Source: Acidobacteriota bacterium (lineage in GTDB: Bacteria; Acidobacteriota; UBA890; WLXD01). Taken from it: a stretch of 64,000 nt of DNA. Positions 10,179 through 64,000 of the stretch are shown piece after piece. Location of the stretch: assembly GCA_965205505.1 (NCBI GenBank), contig CBDBHB010000004.1, positions 18,206 to 82,205 of the forward strand, read 5' to 3'. The notes under the pieces are model-generated. The model made no database searches. It saw only the letters and a list, made by a program, of their open reading frames with translations, and was not told the DNA's origin. A program made the translations under genes and the position numbers. How positions within the stretch are numbered: position 1 is the first letter of the stretch; every line of letters begins with the position of its first letter.

Positions 10179-11059
10179 GCCCAGCTCGACGGCGCGAGGC
10201 GGTGGCGCATGTACAGGGGCGGCTGGGCGTCTCCGAGAGGCGGGCGTGCCGGGTACTGAAACAACCACGCACGACACACAGGTACATGCCAAGAGAACCG
10301 GGCGATGAGCAGATGTTGACGGAGCGGATCGTGGATCTAGCCCGACAATACGGGCGCTACGGGTATCGGCGAGTGACGGCGTTGTTGCGTATGGAGGGCT
10401 GGTGGGTGAACCACAAACGAGTGCAGCGTATCTGGAGGCGTGAGGGGCTGAAAGTACCGACAAAGCAGCCCAAACGAGCCCGGCTGTGGCTCAGCGATGG
10501 CTCGTGCATCCGGCTGCGACCACAGCGCAAAGATCACGTCTGGGCGTATGACTTCGTTCATCACCGGACGCACGAGGGTCGGGCTATGAGGCTGCTGACG
10601 ATCGTCGATGAGTACACACGAGAAAGCCTGGCGATCGACGTGGCACGGAAGCTCAACTGTGAGGACGTGCTCGAGCGGCTCGGGTGGTTGTTCGTGCACC
10701 GGGGCATACCTGAGCACATCCGGTCCGATAACGGACCGGAGTTCACCGCCGAGGCGGTTCGCGACTGGCTCGGTAGGCTCGGTGTGGGCACGCTGTTCAT
10801 CGAGCCGGGCTCGCCGTGGGAGAACGGCTACGTGGAGAGCTTCAACGGCAAGCTCCGAGACGAGCTGCTCAACGGCGAGATCTTCTACACGCTCAAGGAG
10901 GCAAAGGTTCTGATCGAGAGATGGAGGCAGCAGTACAACCGCATGCGACCGCACAGCTCGTTGGGCTACCGACCACCGGCCCCGGAGGCGCTGTTGTTGA
11001 AGCCGGCTACGCTCCGCTTCGCCGGCCTCAACAACCCCTTGTCAGCACCGAGTTACTGA
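10166..11059 (+). CDS. IS3 transposase OrfB (DDE), expressed by -1 frameshift
   Basis: 'WAYDF', 'IRSDNGPEF', '[20 protein letters not shown]'. Confidence 0.9.
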
Positions 11060-57551: not shown

Positions 57552-58762
57552 TGACCCAAACCCCGAAAACGGTGCCAGGTTGATGTTTAGGAAATCGGTG
57601 TACCGTCGTCCTCCAAGCAGGAGGACAGATGAAGCGGAAGAGGTACACGGACGAGCAGATCGCCTACGCGCTGCGGCAGGCACGCCGATCAAGGAGGTGT
57701 GTCGCAAGCTGGGCGTCAGCGAGCAGACGTTGTACACGTGGCGCCGCAAGTTCGCCGGGATGGGCGTGGCCGAACTTCGGGAGCAACGACAACTCCGCCA
57801 TGAGAACCGGAAGTTGAAGCAGCTGGTGGCAGATCTGAGCTTGGACAAGCACATGCTCCAGGAGGTGCTGTCAAAAAAGGTGTGAAGCCGGCGCGCAAGC
57901 GCGAGGTGGTGCGGTACCTGCAGGACGGGTTCCGTGTCAGTGAGCGTCGAGCGTGTCGGCTGATCGAGTTGTCGCGCACCAGCCATCGGTATCAGAGCAC
58001 AAGGACGGACGACCCCGTGCTGCGGCGTCGTCTTGGCGAGCTCGCCGCGGCGCGTCCGCGGTTCGGGTATCGGAGGTTGTGCGTGTTGCTACGCCGCGAG
58101 GGATGGGTAGTGAACCAGAAGCGCGTGTATCGGATCTATCGAGAGGAGGGGCTGGAGGTACGGACCAAAAAGCGACGGCGCAAGCGGGCGAGTCACATAC
58201 GGCTTGTGCTGCCGCCCGCAGAGCGGCCCAACGAGCGCTGGAGCATGGACTTCGTGACCGATCGGCTCGAGAGTGGCCGGCCGTTTCGGGTGCTGACGGT
58301 GGTCGATCAGTTTAGCCGTGAATGTCCGTTACTTGAGCCGGGCGTGTCGATGACCGGCAAGGCGGTGGCTGGAGCACTCGAGCGGCTGTCGTTTGCCGGG
58401 CCGTTGCCACGGGTCATCACCGTCGACAATGGCTCAGAATTCTACTCCCAGGCGATGGACTCCTGGGCGTACCGAAGAGGCGTGCAGTTGGAGTTCATTC
58501 GGCCGGGAAAGCCCGTGGAGAATGCGTTCATCGAGAGTTTCAACGGACGGCTTCGCGACGAATGCCTCAACGCCAACCTGTTCTTCTCGATCGATGACGC
58601 GCGCCGAAAACTGGAGGCTTGGAGGCTTGATTACAATACCCACAGACCACACAGCTCACTGAACGATCGAACTCCTACGGAGTTCGCCAGGGGCTGGCAA
58701 CCGGAGGCTTCGGAACACCGAATCCTAAACCTCTGACTGGTACTGATTTCGGGGTGGGGTCA
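57552..58762 (+). mobile_element. IS3-family element (IS407-like) with a frameshifted orfA
   Basis: IRs TGACCCAAACCCCGAAAACGGTGCCAG / CTGGTACTGATTTCGGGGTGGGGTCA. A6G slippery site at 57873-57879. OrfA 'MKRKRYTDEQIAYALRQA' shifts to 'TPIKEVCRKLG'. Confidence 0.9.
57882..58736 (+). CDS. IS3 transposase OrfB
   Basis: 'WSMDF', 'VDNGSEF', '[22 protein letters not shown]'. Confidence 0.9.
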
Positions 58763-58767
58763 ATGGT

Positions 58768-58814
58768 CCCAGATCGTGTGATTACATCTGGACCCGTTTT
58801 CGGGGGTCAGGTCA
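58768..58814 (-). mobile_element. Left-end stump of an isoform of the IS at 9834
   Basis: Its reverse complement matches 9834-9880 with four substitutions. Confidence 0.85.
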
Positions 58815-59186
58815 GAGGACGCGAGTGCTGATCTCACCCAACGGATCGGGGTCTATGTGGTGGCTGTGGCACTGCCCGTCTTTTCCGACAGTCTGGACGT
58901 CATCCGAGTCGTCGGTGCATGGGTCAATTCAGTGCTTGACGGTGTTGCGACCGCCCTGCAGGGCATGGCCGTCGCGTACGTACTGATGCAGGCCAAGGCC
59001 GTCCACGGTCGCCTCCGGGGCCTCCTGCGAGCATGCACCGCGCAGTCTGCGCATATCTGCGCATACCTGAGTATTGTTGTCCACAGGGGGGGCATCGAAA
59101 GTCAGGGCCGCCTCGCGCCCTGGTACATTTGTAAACAAACGAATCTGCGCGAAATTTCCCACACGATTCCCACAGCGATCCGACAC

Positions 59187-59495
59187 GTGCCGATCGAGCC
59201 AGAAAGCCTCCGCCGCGCGCGCTGGAACCAGCGGTATCGCCGGTGGCGCGCCGGGATCCTCCGGAGCGAGCCGCTGTGCCGTCCCTGCGCCGAAGCGGGC
59301 ATCACGGTCGCCGCCGAGCACATCGACCACATCGAGCCTGTGCACCTGGCGCCGGAGCGCTTCTGGGACCGCACCAACATCCAGCCGTTGTGCCGGGACT
59401 GCCACGAGCGCAAGCACCGCGCGGCAAGGGTCGCGCATTTGCCCAATTTAAAATGTCCCTTAGCCCAAATAATTACCATTCCACAACTCGTGTGA
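59187..59495 (+). CDS. Small HNH endonuclease (phage packaging-associated type)
   Basis: 'PLCRPC...IDHI.P...N.QPLCRDCH..K'. Start uncertain. Confidence 0.75.
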   Translation: MPIEPESLRRARWNQRYRRWRAGILRSEPLCRPCAEAGITVAAEHIDHIEPVHLAPERFWDRTNIQPLCRDCHERKHRAARVAHLPNLKCPLAQIITIPQLV

Positions 59496-59556
59496 GACAC
59501 GCTTATCCTAGTAGGCGATCAAATAGGCAACTATTCCTGTTCGCAGATTGGGGACC

Positions 59557-59679
59557 ATGCAGCCCCTTCCGCCGCTTGAATGTCTGCGCTTCTTCGAAGC
59601 CGCGGCCCGCCGCGAGAGCTTCGCCAAGGCGGCTGAGGAGCTCCACGTCACATCCTCGGCCGTTGCGCACCGCATCAAG
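59557..59679 (+). pseudogene. LysR (GcvA/AmpR-like) HTH fragment
   Basis: MQPLPPLECLRFFEAAARRESFAKAAEELHVTSSAVAHRIK, truncated just before the IS1-like element. Confidence 0.8.
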
Positions 59680-59735
59680 GACGGAAGGCCCGGCGGCCCA
59701 GTCGGTAGTGTCCTAATTTGAATCGGGGATCAGGC

Positions 59736-60035
59736 TTACGACCTATAATCACTTACGATCGCCGCCCGGACGGCCTTCGCAGGAGAATCAACCTGCTCCG
59801 TATGCAGTACAGCGTAAAAGCGGCGATTCTCGGAGCCCTCTACGGGCGACGACCACGCGTAGCAGATCGACGCTGAGGGATGGCCTGAGAGGCTGTAGAC
59901 GTGGACCGCGCCTTCCCACGCCACCTGGCCCTGGAACTCCTCGCGGACGGCTACAGCCTTCTGGTGCGAAGCGTGGCAGCCGTGCAGCCGTTCGACGTGG
60001 CGTTGCAACTCAGTCGTCGCTACTACTTCCGGCAT
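59736..60035 (-). CDS. Hypothetical passenger protein (99 aa)
   Basis: Clean ORF overlapping the upstream ORF's end and stopping just inside the IR. Confidence 0.65.
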   Translation of the reverse strand: MPEVVATTELQRHVERLHGCHASHQKAVAVREEFQGQVAWEGAVHVYSLSGHPSASICYAWSSPVEGSENRRFYAVLHTEQVDSPAKAVRAAIVSDYRS

Positions 60036-60765
60036 CCCCAGCCTCGGAATCCGAGATCAGCGAATCTCGCATCAGCTCGAGGTAGCCGGTAAGAATCTTA
60101 TGGTCCGCGCTGGTGAGGCTGACCGGAGTTCGCAAGGTCGCCAGCCGCTTACCCGGCAGCGGAATCGAGAGATCTCGCTCGGCCGCTTCTGCTTCCATGA
60201 CATTCTCCTGTCGATTCGGCTGCGGAGAGCCAGCGGAGGACTGTCCGAGCGTTGGTTCCTCTAGTTTATCTTCACCACCATTCGATTCTGGCTCGGGAGA
60301 GGTCAGATTAGCATACGAGATCGTTGCCCGAAACTGCTTGATGAAATCTTCGGCGCCGCTCGGAGGGAAGCTCTTGTCACGCTGCAAGTACAACTTGATA
60401 TCAGCGTCTGAAGGTAGCTTACCGGCGTACTTGCTCCACAGTTCCTGGTGGAGTATCGGATTCAAAGCTGCCCTACAGACAGCTTCGTCGCGTTCGGGAG
60501 AATCGGGCCGCTCATCCAGCACAATCTCGAGAGCCAAGGGGCTAAGTTTCGCGTCTTGGCCGCGCCTCTGGTCGATCAGTCCGAACTGACGCAACGCTCC
60601 GAATGCCACAAGCCCGTTGCTGCTCTTCGGCGAGTATCCCCAGTGCTGCAGAACGGTTTCCTTGGCGGAAGAATGATTGAGAATCTGCCTGTGAAGTGTC
60701 GTGGCCAGCTCCACTGCGCGCTCTAAGTCAATTGACGGCTTCCGAGGACTACGCGATTTCGCCAT
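60010..60765 (-). CDS. Hypothetical passenger protein (251 aa, possible winged-helix)
   Basis: RBS AGGAGG. Helical N-domain with 'GALRQFGLI' and an acidic linker. Confidence 0.7.
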   Translation of the reverse strand: MAKSRSPRKPSIDLERAVELATTLHRQILNHSSAKETVLQHWGYSPKSSNGLVAFGALRQFGLIDQRRGQDAKLSPLALEIVLDERPDSPERDEAVCRAALNPILHQELWSKYAGKLPSDADIKLYLQRDKSFPPSGAEDFIKQFRATISYANLTSPEPESNGGEDKLEEPTLGQSSAGSPQPNRQENVMEAEAAERDLSIPLPGKRLATLRTPVSLTSADHKILTGYLELMRDSLISDSEAGDAGSSSDD

Positions 60766-60818: not shown

Positions 60819-60911
60819 CGGAAGGTGAGGGAATCGAACCCCTTCGCTGCGTCCACAGCGAGCCCTCCGGGTGTAAACCCCGTTACTGGACCATCCAATG
60901 GGTCACCTTCC
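60819..60911 (-). tRNA. Non-canonical 9/3 (or 8/4) allo-tRNA-like gene, long variable arm, apparent anticodon UUA
   Basis: Acceptor GGAAGGTGA/TCACCTTCC; D arm ATTGGA-TGG-TCCAGT; anticodon arm CGGG-GTTTACA-CCCG; variable arm TCGCTG/CAGCGA; T arm GGG-TTCGATT-CCC; G73; CCA not encoded. Confidence 0.75.
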
Positions 60912-61068: not shown

Positions 61069-61899
61069 ATGGCTAACGTCCTGAAGCGAGAGAAGCAAGA
61101 GGCGGTCATCCGGTGCTTGGTCGAGGGTTGCTCGATCCGAGCCACGGAGCGCATGACGGGCGTTCACCGCGACAGCGTCATGCGGTTGCTCGTCCGGGTC
61201 GGAAACGGCTGCGAGGCGGCGATGGATGACCGAATGCAGAACCTTCCCTGTGAGCAGATCCAGGTTGACGAGATCTGGGCTTACGTTGGCAAGAAGCAGC
61301 GCCACCTAAAGCCATCTGATGACCCGCGTCGCTTCGGTGACTTCTGGACGTTCGTTGCGCTGGACCCGGAATCGAAGATCGTCCCAGCCTTTCGCGTCGG
61401 CAAGCGCGACCTAGCAACCGCTACCGCGTTCATGGGCGATGTCGCTTCGCGCCTCGCCAACCGCGTGCAGCTTTCCTCCGACTCCCTGGCCGCCTACGTC
61501 GAAGCGACCGAGCAGGCATTCGGTCCGTACGTCGACTACGGTCAGATCGTAAAGTGCTATGAAGCCGAGCCAATCGGTCCGGGTAGGTACAGCCCGCCGC
61601 ACGTCACGAGCACCCGTCGCAGGGCGATCGTCGGCCAGCCAGCACCAGACAAGATCTGCACCAGCCACATCGAGCGGCAGAACCTGACCATGCGTATGAA
61701 CATGCGCCGCTTCACTCGCCTGACGAACGCGTTCAGCAAGAAGGTCGAGAACCTGCGCGCGGCCGTCTCGCTGCACTTCGCTCACTACAACTTCGTGCGC
61801 GTCCACCAGACTCTGCGAGTCACTCCCGCTATGGAAGCTGGCGTGACGGGCTCACTTTGGTCAATTGGTCGACTGATCGACGAAGCAGGTTCAAATTAG
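61069..61899 (+). CDS. IS1-family DDE transposase A (HTH plus DDE, no zinc finger)
   Basis: 'LVEGCSIRATER.TGV', 'QVDEIW', 'SDS', 'IERQNLTMR...RRFTR'. Stop codon lies inside the IRR. Confidence 0.88.
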   Translation: MANVLKREKQEAVIRCLVEGCSIRATERMTGVHRDSVMRLLVRVGNGCEAAMDDRMQNLPCEQIQVDEIWAYVGKKQRHLKPSDDPRRFGDFWTFVALDPESKIVPAFRVGKRDLATATAFMGDVASRLANRVQLSSDSLAAYVEATEQAFGPYVDYGQIVKCYEAEPIGPGRYSPPHVTSTRRRAIVGQPAPDKICTSHIERQNLTMRMNMRRFTRLTNAFSKKVENLRAAVSLHFAHYNFVRVHQTLRVTPAMEAGVTGSLWSIGRLIDEAGSN

Positions 61900-62073: not shown

Positions 62074-62446
62074 ATGGGACGCCGAATCCTCTGCGCAGTC
62101 ACTCTGGTCTGCGTCATCTTCTCGACTTCTGGATGCGCCACCATTCTGGCAAAGCAACCGGCCGTCTCCGCTAACTCAAACCCGGTAGGCGCACAGGTGC
62201 TTAGTTGATGGCCAGCTTGTCGGCAACACACCGATGCGTGTCGAGCTTGACCCGAAGAACGCCAAGTCGATCACCTTGCGCATGGAAGGCTGCGAAGACA
62301 TAACCGTTCCATTAACCCGCAGCACCGGCGCTGGCTGGGTTATCCTCGATATCCTGACGGGAGTCGTTCCGATCGTTATCGACGCGGTTACCGGAAAGTG
62401 GACCAGCTTGAACCCCAAGGACATCAACGCCCAGATGCGATGCTAG
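62074..62446 (+). pseudogene. PEGA-domain lipoprotein with a +1 frameshift near 62200
   Basis: RBS AGGAGG; 'SGCATI...SNPVGAQVL' then 'VDGQLVGNTP...ID.VTGKW'. Confidence 0.7.
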
Positions 62447-62705
62447 TGAAGAGCTAGTTGCTGGAGAAAGGGCGGGCGCTGTCGAGAAATCGCGCAGTGC
62501 CCGCCCTTATGTCTGTCACTTGGTGCGTATACGCTAGCGTATATACTCTCTCCACCACCACACCCACCCCATCCTAGGCCAAGGAGCACAACCCCTCGAT
62601 GTCGAAGACGAACGGTAGCGTAGGCAGAGCATTGAAGCGCGCTCCTTTGTCTTGAACACGATTTTCCCCTCGACGCACCCCCAAACCCACACCTACGGAG
62701 CATAG

Positions 62706-62954
62706 ATGCCGACGGGACCGAATGGTGAGAAGCGCCCCGGAAGCGTTATCGCTAACGCAGTCCACGTGATGGAGATCGCCACCGGCCAGCGCGAAGAGGA
62801 GTGTGCCGACGTGAAGCCATCACGTTCAGTGCCAGCACGTCGTGCTGGTGGGCTGAAGGGAGGGAAGGCGCGCGCAGCGTCTCTGTCGAGTAAGCGCAGG
62901 TCCGAGATCGCGCGCAAGGCCGCCGAGGCGCGCTGGGGCAGGAAGCTGGCCTGA
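62706..62954 (+). CDS. Small basic protein (KGG/histone-H1-like, nucleic-acid-binding candidate)
   Basis: 'GP.GEKRP..VI.NAV.V..IATG', 'GGLKGGKARA..LS..RRSEIARKAA.ARW'. RBS GGAG. Confidence 0.75.
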   Translation: MPTGPNGEKRPGSVIANAVHVMEIATGQREEECADVKPSRSVPARRAGGLKGGKARAASLSSKRRSEIARKAAEARWGRKLA

Positions 62955-62983
62955 GAAATCGTGGGGGCCGGGAAGACGGGCAG

Positions 62984-63058
62984 AGCCGCCGGCGGGGATC
63001 GAACCCGCAATCAGGGGTTTCCAGCCCCTAGCCTTACTCCCAATTTGGCCACGGCGGC
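62984..63058 (-). tRNA. tRNA with Ser anticodon GGA on a short-variable-loop, U73 (non-Ser) body
   Basis: GCCGCCG/CGGCGGC; D stem GCC/GGC; AGGGG-CT GGA AA-CCCCT; 4-nt variable loop; GCGGG-TTCGATC-CCCGC; discriminator T; CCA not encoded. Confidence 0.85.
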
Positions 63059-63292
63059 TAAGTTTGTGTGCTCCCGGCCCCTCACGTGTTACGCTAGACG
63101 CAATTAGGGCGTTGTTGATTTGGATCCACTTCGGGCTCCACCCCGAAGCGGATCGCCCCCTAATCCGCTTTCGACGGCCCTTTCACCTTTGGTGATCGGG
63201 CCGCTTCCTTTTGCGAGGATACCAGACCTTAGTATGGTCGTCTAACGTCTGGTTGCCACCAGAAAACACACTGAATTTAAACTGATTTATGC

Positions 63293-63321
63293 TTGACAAC
63301 AGAATGGTATTCATGTACCTT
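63293..63321 (+). promoter_or_regulatory. Sigma70-like promoter of transposase B, probably leaderless
   Basis: TTGACA-17-TACCTT, with the ATG 7 nt downstream and no RBS. Confidence 0.55.
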
Positions 63322-63328
63322 TCTGGGT

Positions 63329-64000
63329 ATGAACAAGCTATCGACCGCGAAGCGAGCAACGATCATCAACCTGCTCGTAGAGGGCTCTTCTTTACGGGCC
63401 ATTAGCCGCATCACCGGGGCCTCGATCAACACGATCTCGAAGCTCCTGGTTGACGCTGGCAACGCTTGCGCGGCGTACCATGACGAGCACGTGCGCGAGC
63501 TGCCCTGCAAGCGTGTGCAGGCCGATGAAATATGGGCGTTCTGCTACGCCAAGCAGAAGAACGTTCCCGAGGGCAAGCGCGGTCATTTTGGCTACGGCGA
63601 CGTATGGACGTACACGGGCATCTGCGCGGACACGAAGCTGATCGCATCTTGGCGCGTGGGGCCGCGCGATGTGGGCACGGCTACCGATTTCATGCAGGAT
63701 CTCGCGGGCCGGCTGAGCAACCGCATCCAGCTAACGACTGACGGGCACAGGATGTACCTGAACGCAGTCGAGGATGCGTTCGCGCATGAGATCGACTACG
63801 CGATGCTCCAGAAGGTCTACGGCCCGGACCCGGAGCCGCAGCGCCGCTACAGCCCCGCCAAGTGCCAAGGAAGCCAGCGGCTGCGAGTGCAGGGGAACCC
63901 TGACGAGGCGCACATCAGCACGTCATACGTCGAGCGACAGAACCTGACCATGCGGATGAGCATGCGGCGCTTCACGCGGCTCACGAATGCATTCTCGAAG
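63329..64000 (+). CDS. IS1-family DDE transposase B (3'-truncated by the window edge)
   Basis: [30 protein letters not shown]...QADEIW...TTDG...[24 protein letters not shown]. Confidence 0.9.

Follow-up and report, generated by a model that had tools for sequence, protein, structure and literature searches.

Natural tRNAs rarely violate the codon table by design, and the known bacterial cases (the allo-tRNAs, tRNAProX and the selC* tRNA-Cys) have changed ideas on the rigidity of the code and supplied tools for genetic code expansion. The allo-tRNAs described from Acidobacteria are of the 8/4 or 9/3 type and have mismatched anticodons, including anticodons that read UAA; the same report describes "irregular tRNAs", some of them with U73, that lie near toxin-antitoxin genes and a transposon-related open reading frame (ORF) (Mukai et al. 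2017, PMC5389517). In E. coli some of the irregular and allo-tRNAs insert serine or alanine, and the irregular tRNAs were suspected of acting as missense or nonsense suppressors or of having non-translational roles (PMC5389517). Here we describe a short-armed tRNA gene with the serine anticodon GGA, referred to below as the GGA tRNA, in a stretch of 64,000 nucleotides (nt) from an Acidobacteriota bacterium (assembly GCA_965205505.1, contig CBDBHB010000004.1), the whole of which is called the window. By sequence its body appears closest to tRNA-Cys, and the gene stands beside a transposase gene of the IS1-like family.

62984..63058, minus strand: class-I tRNA, 75 nt, anticodon GGA, U73, 4-nt variable loop, no encoded CCA (ARAGORN, Rfam, pair count, and Cys, Thr and Gly covariance models)
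63020..63022, minus strand: anticodon GGA (TCC on the plus strand), reading UCC and UCU (sequence, ARAGORN cloverleaf)

Like the irregular tRNAs, the GGA tRNA is a soil-bacterium gene with a mismatch between anticodon and identity, has U73, and is located near transposon-related genes (PMC5389517). It is unlike the allo-tRNAs, which have a 12-bp branch (8/4 or 9/3) and a long variable arm, in being a 7/5 tRNA whose variable loop is short and whose body is of Cys type. The term "GGA" does not occur in the searched text of PMC5389517, whose supplementary figures may show similar tRNAs, and a link to a single family of IS1-like transposases is absent from the description given there. A search of the literature outside supplements turned up no report of a tRNA of Cys type that carries GGA, and none was named in PMC13092985.

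A cysteine-related hybrid identity is shared with the selC* tRNA-Cys and with tRNA-Sec carrying a Cys anticodon, which recode particular codons (PMC11415595). Those tRNAs, as described there, have tRNA-Sec-like structures of the 8/4 type and work with SelB or a special cysteinyl-tRNA synthetase (CysRS), whereas the GGA tRNA is an ordinary short cloverleaf. The tRNAProX/ProRSx pair of Streptomyces and Kitasatospora (PMC11415595) likewise involves a natural 7/5 tRNA that joins one identity to the anticodon of another, but tRNAProX has Pro elements, A33/A34 and a co-encoded ProRSx, while the GGA tRNA has U73, U33 and G34 and is transposase-linked. No dedicated synthetase for the GGA tRNA was found nearby or elsewhere in the genome, nor was an extra synthetase of the class-IIb type. 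The tRNA-Other of Bacillus cereus is a tRNA-like small RNA that may be charged and acts outside normal decoding. Compared by description, it differs from the GGA tRNA in organism, structure and genomic context (it is mentioned in PMC5389517). The GGA tRNA belongs with the known identity-mismatched tRNAs of soil bacteria and extends the Acidobacteria "irregular tRNAs" of 2017; new here are a design that recurs with the same anticodon and its position beside one IS1-like transposase family.

Results

Structure of the GGA tRNA

The window corresponds to C4:18206-82205 of a 5.98-Mb genome in 9 contigs (64% G+C). ARAGORN detected a single tRNA in its 64 kb, at 62983-63058 on the minus strand with the anticodon gga, and the Rfam model RF00005 matched 62984-63058 (minus strand) over positions 1-71 of 71 with 57.3 bits (E 5.9e-11; gathering score 29 bits). 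The acceptor stem is GCCGCCG/CGGCGGC (7 bp) and is followed by U8 and G9. The D arm is composed of the stem GCC/GGC, a flanking A13.A22 mismatch and an 11-nt D loop containing G18G19. After U26 comes the anticodon arm, with the 5-bp stem AGGGG/CCCCU and the loop C-U-GGA-A-A, then the 4-nt variable loop GAUU, the T arm (5-bp stem GCGGG/CCCGC, loop UUCGAUC), and the discriminator U at 62984. ARAGORN drew U26.G44 as a sixth pair of the anticodon stem, and the variable loop then has 3 nt. Every one of the 20 cloverleaf pairs is Watson-Crick, and the universal nucleotides U8, A14, G18G19, U33, G53, U54U55C56, A58 and C61 are present. A preliminary description of this DNA had proposed a fully paired 7/5 cloverleaf with the loop CU-GGA-AA, a 4-nt variable loop and U73, and was right in every detail.

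The minimum-free-energy fold differed from the cloverleaf (-34.3 vs -32.7 kcal/mol), and the stability of the sequence relative to shuffled versions gave a z-score of -0.99; the assignment as a tRNA therefore rests on the covariance model and the conserved core and not on thermodynamics. Positions 62984-63058 are an intact, foldable class-I tRNA gene with a serine anticodon.

The genome has serine tRNAs of its own in the form of a canonical 90-nt tRNA-Ser(GGA) and four other long-arm genes, the five of which span 90-98 nt. ARAGORN listed 55 tRNAs in total, including one tRNA-Cys(GCA) and three tRNA-Thr genes. The GGA tRNA is thus an extra gene and not the serine tRNA of the cell. One CysRS and five class-IIb-type synthetase hits were found, indicating that the genome lacks a spare synthetase. 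The codons UCC and UCU, which the GGA anticodon reads, account for ~22% of serine codons and for 12.6 per 1000 codons in long ORFs.

Isotype of the tRNA body

Serine identity in bacteria depends on a large variable region, G73 and G2-C71 (PMC9976931, Table 1). The GGA tRNA has the serine anticodon and none of these three features; with U73, C2-G71 and a 4-nt variable loop, it should not be recognized by seryl-tRNA synthetase (SerRS). A bacterial tRNA-Ser is excluded by the missing long arm and the missing G73, in agreement with the preliminary description, which had noted that a tRNA-Ser needs a long variable arm and that anticodon and body therefore disagree.

The same description had called U73 and the GCC..GGC D stem tRNA-Cys-like, and sequence comparison bore this out. 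Within its own genome the nearest relative of the GGA tRNA was tRNA-Cys, identical at 57 of 70 positions aligned pairwise. When all were aligned jointly and the anticodon was masked, every one of the 25 nearest tRNAs was a tRNA-Cys (61-70%), and the best non-Cys tRNAs reached 58-59%. The tRNA-Cys genes were gathered from related genomes and their identities confirmed with ARAGORN; one of them, from genome G047, entered the similarity ranking and was excluded from alignments A2-A4. Secondary BLAST matches of the own-genome tRNA-Cys in relatives proved to be ordinary Gln, Phe, Trp, Met, Lys, Thr and Ser tRNAs and were discarded. The GGA tRNA is not a recent duplicate of the housekeeping tRNA-Cys, since the latter is 100% identical across the genus.

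Clade-specific covariance models were built from relatives for Cys (n=23), Thr (n=35) and Gly (n=31) and gave the following scores in bits:

GGA tRNA of the window: Cys 61.6, Thr 48.1, Gly 45.0
Control, true tRNA-Cys: Cys 101.5, Thr 61.1, Gly 58.4
Control, true tRNA-Thr(GGU): Cys 52.5, Thr 91.7, Gly 64.2
Control, true tRNA-Gly(GCC): Cys 46.7, Thr 75.2, Gly 97.6

Of the three models, Cys fitted the GGA tRNA best, and its score of 61.6 exceeded that of every real non-Cys control (at most 52.5), the isotypes beyond these three having been compared by sequence identity alone.

The determinants recognized by CysRS are U73, C3-G70, G2-C71, G34, C35 and A36, and U73 alone confers cysteine identity on minihelices (PMC9976931). 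Four of the six (U73, C3-G70, G34 and A36) are present in the GGA tRNA. It shares with tRNA-Cys(GCA) U73, G1-C72, C3-G70, A13.A22, G34, A36 and the T loop, and differs from it in G35 (not C35), in C2-G71 and C5-G68 (not G-C), in a 4-nt (not 5-nt) variable loop, in A15:U48 and in a longer D loop. The A13.A22 mismatch, in the context GCCA...AGGC, matches 20 of the 23 aligned tRNA-Cys, the other 3 reading CCCA...AGGG; A13 itself does not vary among the 23 aligned tRNA-Cys of the phylum. G2 and C71 are also invariant in these (23/23), at the positions where the GGA tRNA has C2-G71. The tertiary pair 15:48 is G15:C48 in the tRNA-Cys of the phylum and A15:U48 in the GGA tRNA, with pairing kept.

For threonine the determinants are G1-C72, C2-G71, G4-C69, G5-C68, G34, G35 and U36, five of which are present (C5-G68 and A36 fail), and for glycine they are U73, G1-C72, C2-G71, G3-C70, C35 and C36, three of which are present (C3-G70, G35 and A36 fail) (PMC9976931). 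G1-C72 and C2-G71 belong to both sets, as the preliminary description had it when it stated that these pairs fit Thr or Gly. Judged by sequence, the body of the GGA tRNA is Cys-like, yet far from an orthodox tRNA-Cys.

Recurrence of the design

BLAST of the 75-nt GGA tRNA against 61 related genomes returned only the gene itself and a 31-nt partial match in G020, and a search of plasmids and phages returned no match. A scan of genome contigs for the acceptor-stem pattern yielded no homologue among the matches listed, which were mainly archaeal tRNA-Thr. A metagenome scan for the anticodon arm identified one contig (L123) with a 73-nt tRNA that has GGA, U73, a 4-nt variable loop and an encoded CCA. 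In the phylum, 401 genomes were scanned for CTGGAAA followed at 12-13 nt by GGTTCRANNCC. This gave 14 matches in 11 genomes, of which four were tRNAs: the window gene and three genes of G003, a sister species in the same genus. The G003 genes are of two types, type a (G003a) as two identical copies and type b (G003b) as one different gene, and all three have GGA, U73 and a short variable loop. A genus-wide BLAST with the type a tRNA returned no more than its two copies.

Four distinct short-arm tRNAs with GGA and U73 (five genes) are therefore at hand: the window gene, G003a (two copies), G003b and L123. No close homologue with a concordant anticodon was found, and the three divergent tRNAs of the same design also carry GGA. 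The four are as dissimilar as unrelated tRNAs (59% identity between the window gene and L123). Nevertheless, 79 of 80 stem cells are paired, and in 13 of 20 pairs both bases have been replaced, a covariation count that leans towards structure in having come from an alignment fitted to the structure of the model. The Cys model scored best for all four, with margins of 13.5, 11.8, 2.4 and 10.5 bits. Position 2 is G2 or A2 in the other three, which makes the Thr-like C2-G71 a peculiarity of the window copy. The presence of GGA on four divergent bodies argues, at the level of sequence, for selection on the design.

Viral sequences were also scanned. A first scan gave one tRNA-Cys-like 3′ fragment with GCA, which was rejected, and a generic scan gave at least 116 sites and 13 ARAGORN calls, with no intact GGA/U73 short-arm tRNA among the matches listed; most of these calls were tRNA-Pro(UGG), the loop of which contains the pattern. 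Viral locus L327 has, near position 10915, a tRNA-like gene whose D arm is of the Cys/Gln type, whose acceptor stem is 8 bp long and whose anticodon loop spans 8 nt (CCUGGAAA). On L123, a prolyl-tRNA synthetase gene with editing, core and anticodon-binding domains (L123:3737-5017, minus strand) lies ~2 kb from the GGA tRNA and is probably a housekeeping neighbour.

Association with IS1-like transposases

Two transposase genes and a second tRNA-like element accompany the GGA tRNA in the window:

61069..61899, plus strand: IS1-like DDE transposase gene, copy A, 276 amino acids (aa) (Pfam DDE_Tnp_IS1 36.2 bits; NCBIfam IS1 68.5 bits)
63329..64000, plus strand: IS1-like DDE transposase gene, copy B, cut by the contig end (NCBIfam IS1 56 bits)
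60820..60911, minus strand: irregular tRNA-like element, 92 nt, 9-bp acceptor stem, long extra arm, loop GUUUACA (Rfam tRNA-Sec 34.8 bits)

Both copies scored below the NCBIfam IS1 cut-off of 100 bits. They are 45% identical to each other and are the sole two of their type in the genome; copy B is 62% identical to the transposase adjoining the type b GGA tRNA of G003.

Each complete copy of the GGA tRNA was found within 300 bp of an IS1-like transposase gene. In the window, 270 nt separate the 5′ end of the GGA tRNA from the ATG of copy B, and the two genes are divergent; taking copy A with its tRNA-Sec-like element, both transposase copies of this genome have a tRNA or tRNA-like gene 157-270 nt upstream in divergent orientation. 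The type a tRNA of G003 lies 230 nt upstream of its transposase in the same orientation, inside a repeat of at least 2559 bp, and the type b tRNA lies ~275 nt past the 3′ end of its transposase and is convergent with it. On L123 an N-terminal transposase fragment is located ~570 nt from the GGA tRNA.

The transposase family is present in 72 of 401 genomes of the phylum. Irregular tRNA-like elements were found within 1.5 kb of the transposase at at least 9 of 30 loci examined, nine being a lower bound because the unfiltered model search was run at 8 of the 30. The elements were as follows:

L199, the window: GGA tRNA and tRNA-Sec-like element
L200: tRNA-Sec-like element, by alignment
L207, L210, L222: tRNA-Sec-like elements, 30.7-42.6 bits; anticodon of L222 UAG
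L212:2561-2633, minus strand: short-arm tRNA, anticodon AGC, U73, G3-C70 (so without alanine identity)
L214:3250-3338: long-arm tRNA, anticodon UGC
L213:2390-2460, minus strand: 28 bits on the Cys model, G3:U70, A73, loop CUUUAGA (UUA), just upstream of the transposase
L209:1179-1246, plus strand: weak, 18.9 bits, loop CUUCUAA (UCU), just upstream of the transposase

The transposase at L212, also of this family, has an N-terminal zinc-finger extension, and the tRNA lies ~120-260 nt upstream of it. At L206 (genome G166) only ordinary tRNAs occurred near the transposase; no conclusion here depends on G166 or on G047. As a control, the 18 copies of the rve-type insertion sequence (IS) of the own genome were examined, one of which is on a contig without tRNA. 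None of the 17 measurable copies had a tRNA within 1.5 kb, and the nearest was 2.3 kb away. Compared with this control (0/17), the 9 of 30 loci indicate that the link is real; the IS1-like transposase family is associated with odd tRNA genes. Besides the short-arm GGA/U73 tRNAs, this set takes in tRNA-Sec-like elements whose anticodons are UUA, UAG or UCU. The tRNA may be cargo of the IS1-like element or mark a preferred insertion site. Terminal inverted repeats marking the ends of the element were searched for and not found. The idea that the transposase itself requires Ser-to-Cys recoding was discarded, as there was no alignment column in which the GGA-linked transposases share a UCC/UCU serine at a family-conserved residue.

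The element at 60820-60911 lies 157 nt upstream of copy A and is divergent from it. Its anticodon is UUA, complementary to the stop codon UAA, and ARAGORN makes no call there. Its tRNA-Sec score is below the gathering score of 47 and on its own means little, because ordinary class-II tRNAs score similarly. The minimum-free-energy fold is a four-arm cloverleaf (z -2.62). Over its 92 nt the G003 version differs by 5 substitutions, each of which falls in a loop or produces a G.U pair, within a region that is 91.6% identical. By comparison with the allo-tRNAs it looks 9/3-like, and a type with a 9-bp acceptor stem and UUA is listed in PMC5389517. Sub-threshold matches to the tRNA-Sec model without an ARAGORN call were also seen in the own genome at C9:1047616-1047715 (35.8 bits) and C8:443625-443738 (28 bits), and these may be irregular tRNA-like elements.

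Further unusual tRNAs were observed in the course of these searches. A Cys-like tRNA of the own genome, at C9:617574-617648 (L246:175-248), has U73, the D stem GACA/AGUC and an anticodon loop of 8 nt (CUAGCAAA). Over the gene and its flanks, an upstream hairpin among them, identity to the G003a locus is 73%, but the anticodon arm is entirely different. Long-arm class-II tRNAs with the alanine anticodon UGC occur at C9:2962668-2962755 (L247), in G003 at L196:5724-5810, and at the L214 position listed above; that of G003 is 1.6 kb from a GGA tRNA. Long-arm tRNAs with UGC/UGCA and U73 were also seen on two Rokuibacteriota contigs (L049 and L074), and their acceptor stem is identical to that of the window tRNA. 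The Arg-like tRNA at L231:1319-1393 (G003:C2:1401818-1401892) is short-armed, has a damaged anticodon stem and is read by ARAGORN as CGA (Ser); it adjoins a transposase fragment and looks decaying. In G004 (C2:990-6903) three transposases of the same family stand in tandem with a period of 2555 bp, near the size of the G003 repeat (at least 2559 bp), and no tRNA was detected in the first unit (L219).

Surroundings in the window

Most of the window encodes ordinary chromosomal functions, for example a PQQ dehydrogenase, an amidohydrolase and an ABC transporter. From ~57.5 kb to the contig end mobile DNA has piled up, and this region holds the following features besides those given above:

57552-58763: rve-type IS, present in the genome as 18 copies of 900 bp or more
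58764-59704: repeat containing an HNH endonuclease, parts of which recur by several tRNA genes, including the long-arm tRNA at C9:2962668
59736-60035, minus strand: 99-aa ORF of no known family, adjoining copy-A-type transposases at 8 other loci
60010-60765, minus strand: 251-aa ORF of no known family; like the 99-aa ORF it is downstream of the tRNA-Sec-like element and on the strand of that element
62706..62954, plus strand: 82-aa ORF converging on the 3′ end of the GGA tRNA, with no family match in Pfam or NCBIfam and with homologues near same-family transposases in G005

Atlas clusters for the 99-aa ORF are most often from Acidobacteriota.

Discussion

The reading we tentatively favour, while holding it at somewhat below even chances, is that the GGA tRNA is a Cys-type member of the transposase-linked irregular set that is weakly cysteinylated and acts as a Ser-to-Cys missense tRNA. 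Under this model, the GGA tRNA would be transcribed, processed and CCA-tailed like any tRNA, and in the absence of the long arm and G73 SerRS would pass it over. The single CysRS would charge it weakly through U73 and features of the acceptor and core, despite the missing C35, a step supported by the cysteine identity that minihelices gain from U73 alone (PMC9976931). The charged tRNA would then compete with the normal tRNA-Ser(GGA) and place a little cysteine at UCC and UCU. Any such missense activity should be low or conditional, because efficient charging would be costly.

Several points weigh against this model. The Cys-model score of the GGA tRNA is 40 bits under that of a real tRNA-Cys, the CysRS determinants C35 and G2-C71 are replaced by G35 and C2-G71, and a simple count of determinants fits Thr (5/7) at least as well as Cys (4/6). 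The Cys assignment has the further limit that only Thr and Gly were set against it by covariance model, and the covariation count has the bias given above. The orientation and side of the tRNA relative to the transposase differ among copies. A scan for a sigma-70-like promoter and a terminator on the strand of the GGA tRNA found neither, and the missing promoter counts against expression. Within 62400-63400, contigs from three RNA runs of one study (90-99% alike to the window) cover only 62516-62869 and 63275-63397, and not the tRNA. Finally, among the irregular tRNAs described in PMC5389517, one with U73 was not charged by the glycyl- or threonyl-tRNA synthetase (GlyRS, ThrRS) of E. coli, and others were charged yet unused in translation.

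A role outside translation is nearly as likely, though it too is put at clearly less than even. The GGA tRNA would in this case be a tRNA-shaped RNA in the service of the mobile element or of an addiction or defence module close by. It may be a decoy or sponge for an enzyme that recognizes the anticodon loop of tRNA-Ser(GGA), or a regulator, and it may be uncharged, or charged and kept off the ribosome. A missense tRNA and an uncharged decoy were the two options named in the preliminary description, whose reading is broadly right but overlooked the transposase-linked set and the second tRNA-like element 2 kb away. The CUGGAAA loop on four unrelated bodies fits selection for a recognition site as well as it fits decoding, and the GGA tRNA lacks the full determinant set of any synthetase. 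The tight linkage both to the IS1-like transposase and to small ORFs without a known family points the same way, as does the report that many irregular and allo-type tRNAs of Acidobacteria are unused in translation and accompany transposons or toxin-antitoxin genes (PMC5389517; PMC7609411). However, no toxin, nuclease or antitoxin family was found among the neighbouring ORFs with Pfam and NCBIfam (PADLOC was not part of this search), and the full universal core and unblemished acceptor stem exceed the needs of an anticodon-loop decoy.

It is unlikely that the gene is a functionless hitch-hiker, that is, a diverged tRNA-Cys copy with a mutated anticodon that sits in an IS-rich junkyard and has not yet decayed. 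Its location in an IS cluster at a contig end would suit such an origin, and within the genus 3 of the 4 remaining genomes lack a conserved GGA tRNA; the lack of a detected promoter and the degenerate tRNA-like gene near a transposase fragment in G003 are further points in favour. Against decay, the 20 stem pairs and the core nucleotides are all intact and the tertiary pair 15:48 has co-varied, while the same anticodon is found on four divergent bodies with compensatory stem changes.

Less probable still is a threonine-accepting missense tRNA, in which ThrRS would charge the GGA tRNA through G1-C72, C2-G71, G4-C69, G34 and G35 and threonine would be placed at UCC and UCU. The window copy does have five of the seven bacterial Thr determinants, the tRNA-Thr species of the genome have U73 and acceptor stems starting GCC or GCU, and the exact acceptor stem GCCGCCG...CGGCGGC-U was otherwise seen mainly in archaeal tRNA-Thr among the matches listed. 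But U36 is missing, the Thr model scored 13.5 bits below the Cys model, and the variable loop has 4 nt where 35 of 35 aligned tRNA-Thr have 5. Furthermore, the other three GGA tRNAs lack C2-G71, which means that the group as a whole would not have Thr identity.

An assembly or sequencing error in the anticodon of a tRNA-Cys or tRNA-Thr gene, from which GGA is one base away in each case (GCA and GGT), is ruled out for practical purposes because GGA is found on four divergent bodies of the same design in independent assemblies, and the genome already holds a normal tRNA-Cys and three tRNA-Thr genes and the GGA tRNA is only ~65-81% identical to tRNA-Cys.

Returning to the Ser-to-Cys model, a broader and more doubtful proposal is that the IS1-like family carries or homes to a kit of code-bending tRNAs (Cys-type tRNAs for UCC/UCU, tRNA-Sec-like and Ala-type tRNAs for UAA, and others) and so spreads regulated mistranslation or read-through between genomes, in which case the GGA tRNA would be a selected, transposon-borne Ser-to-Cys decoder. 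If the GGA tRNA is uncharged, it points instead to mobile elements making use of the tRNA shape outside translation. If it carries cysteine, it would offer a reactive thiol at ~1% of codon positions, and this capacity would be movable between genomes.

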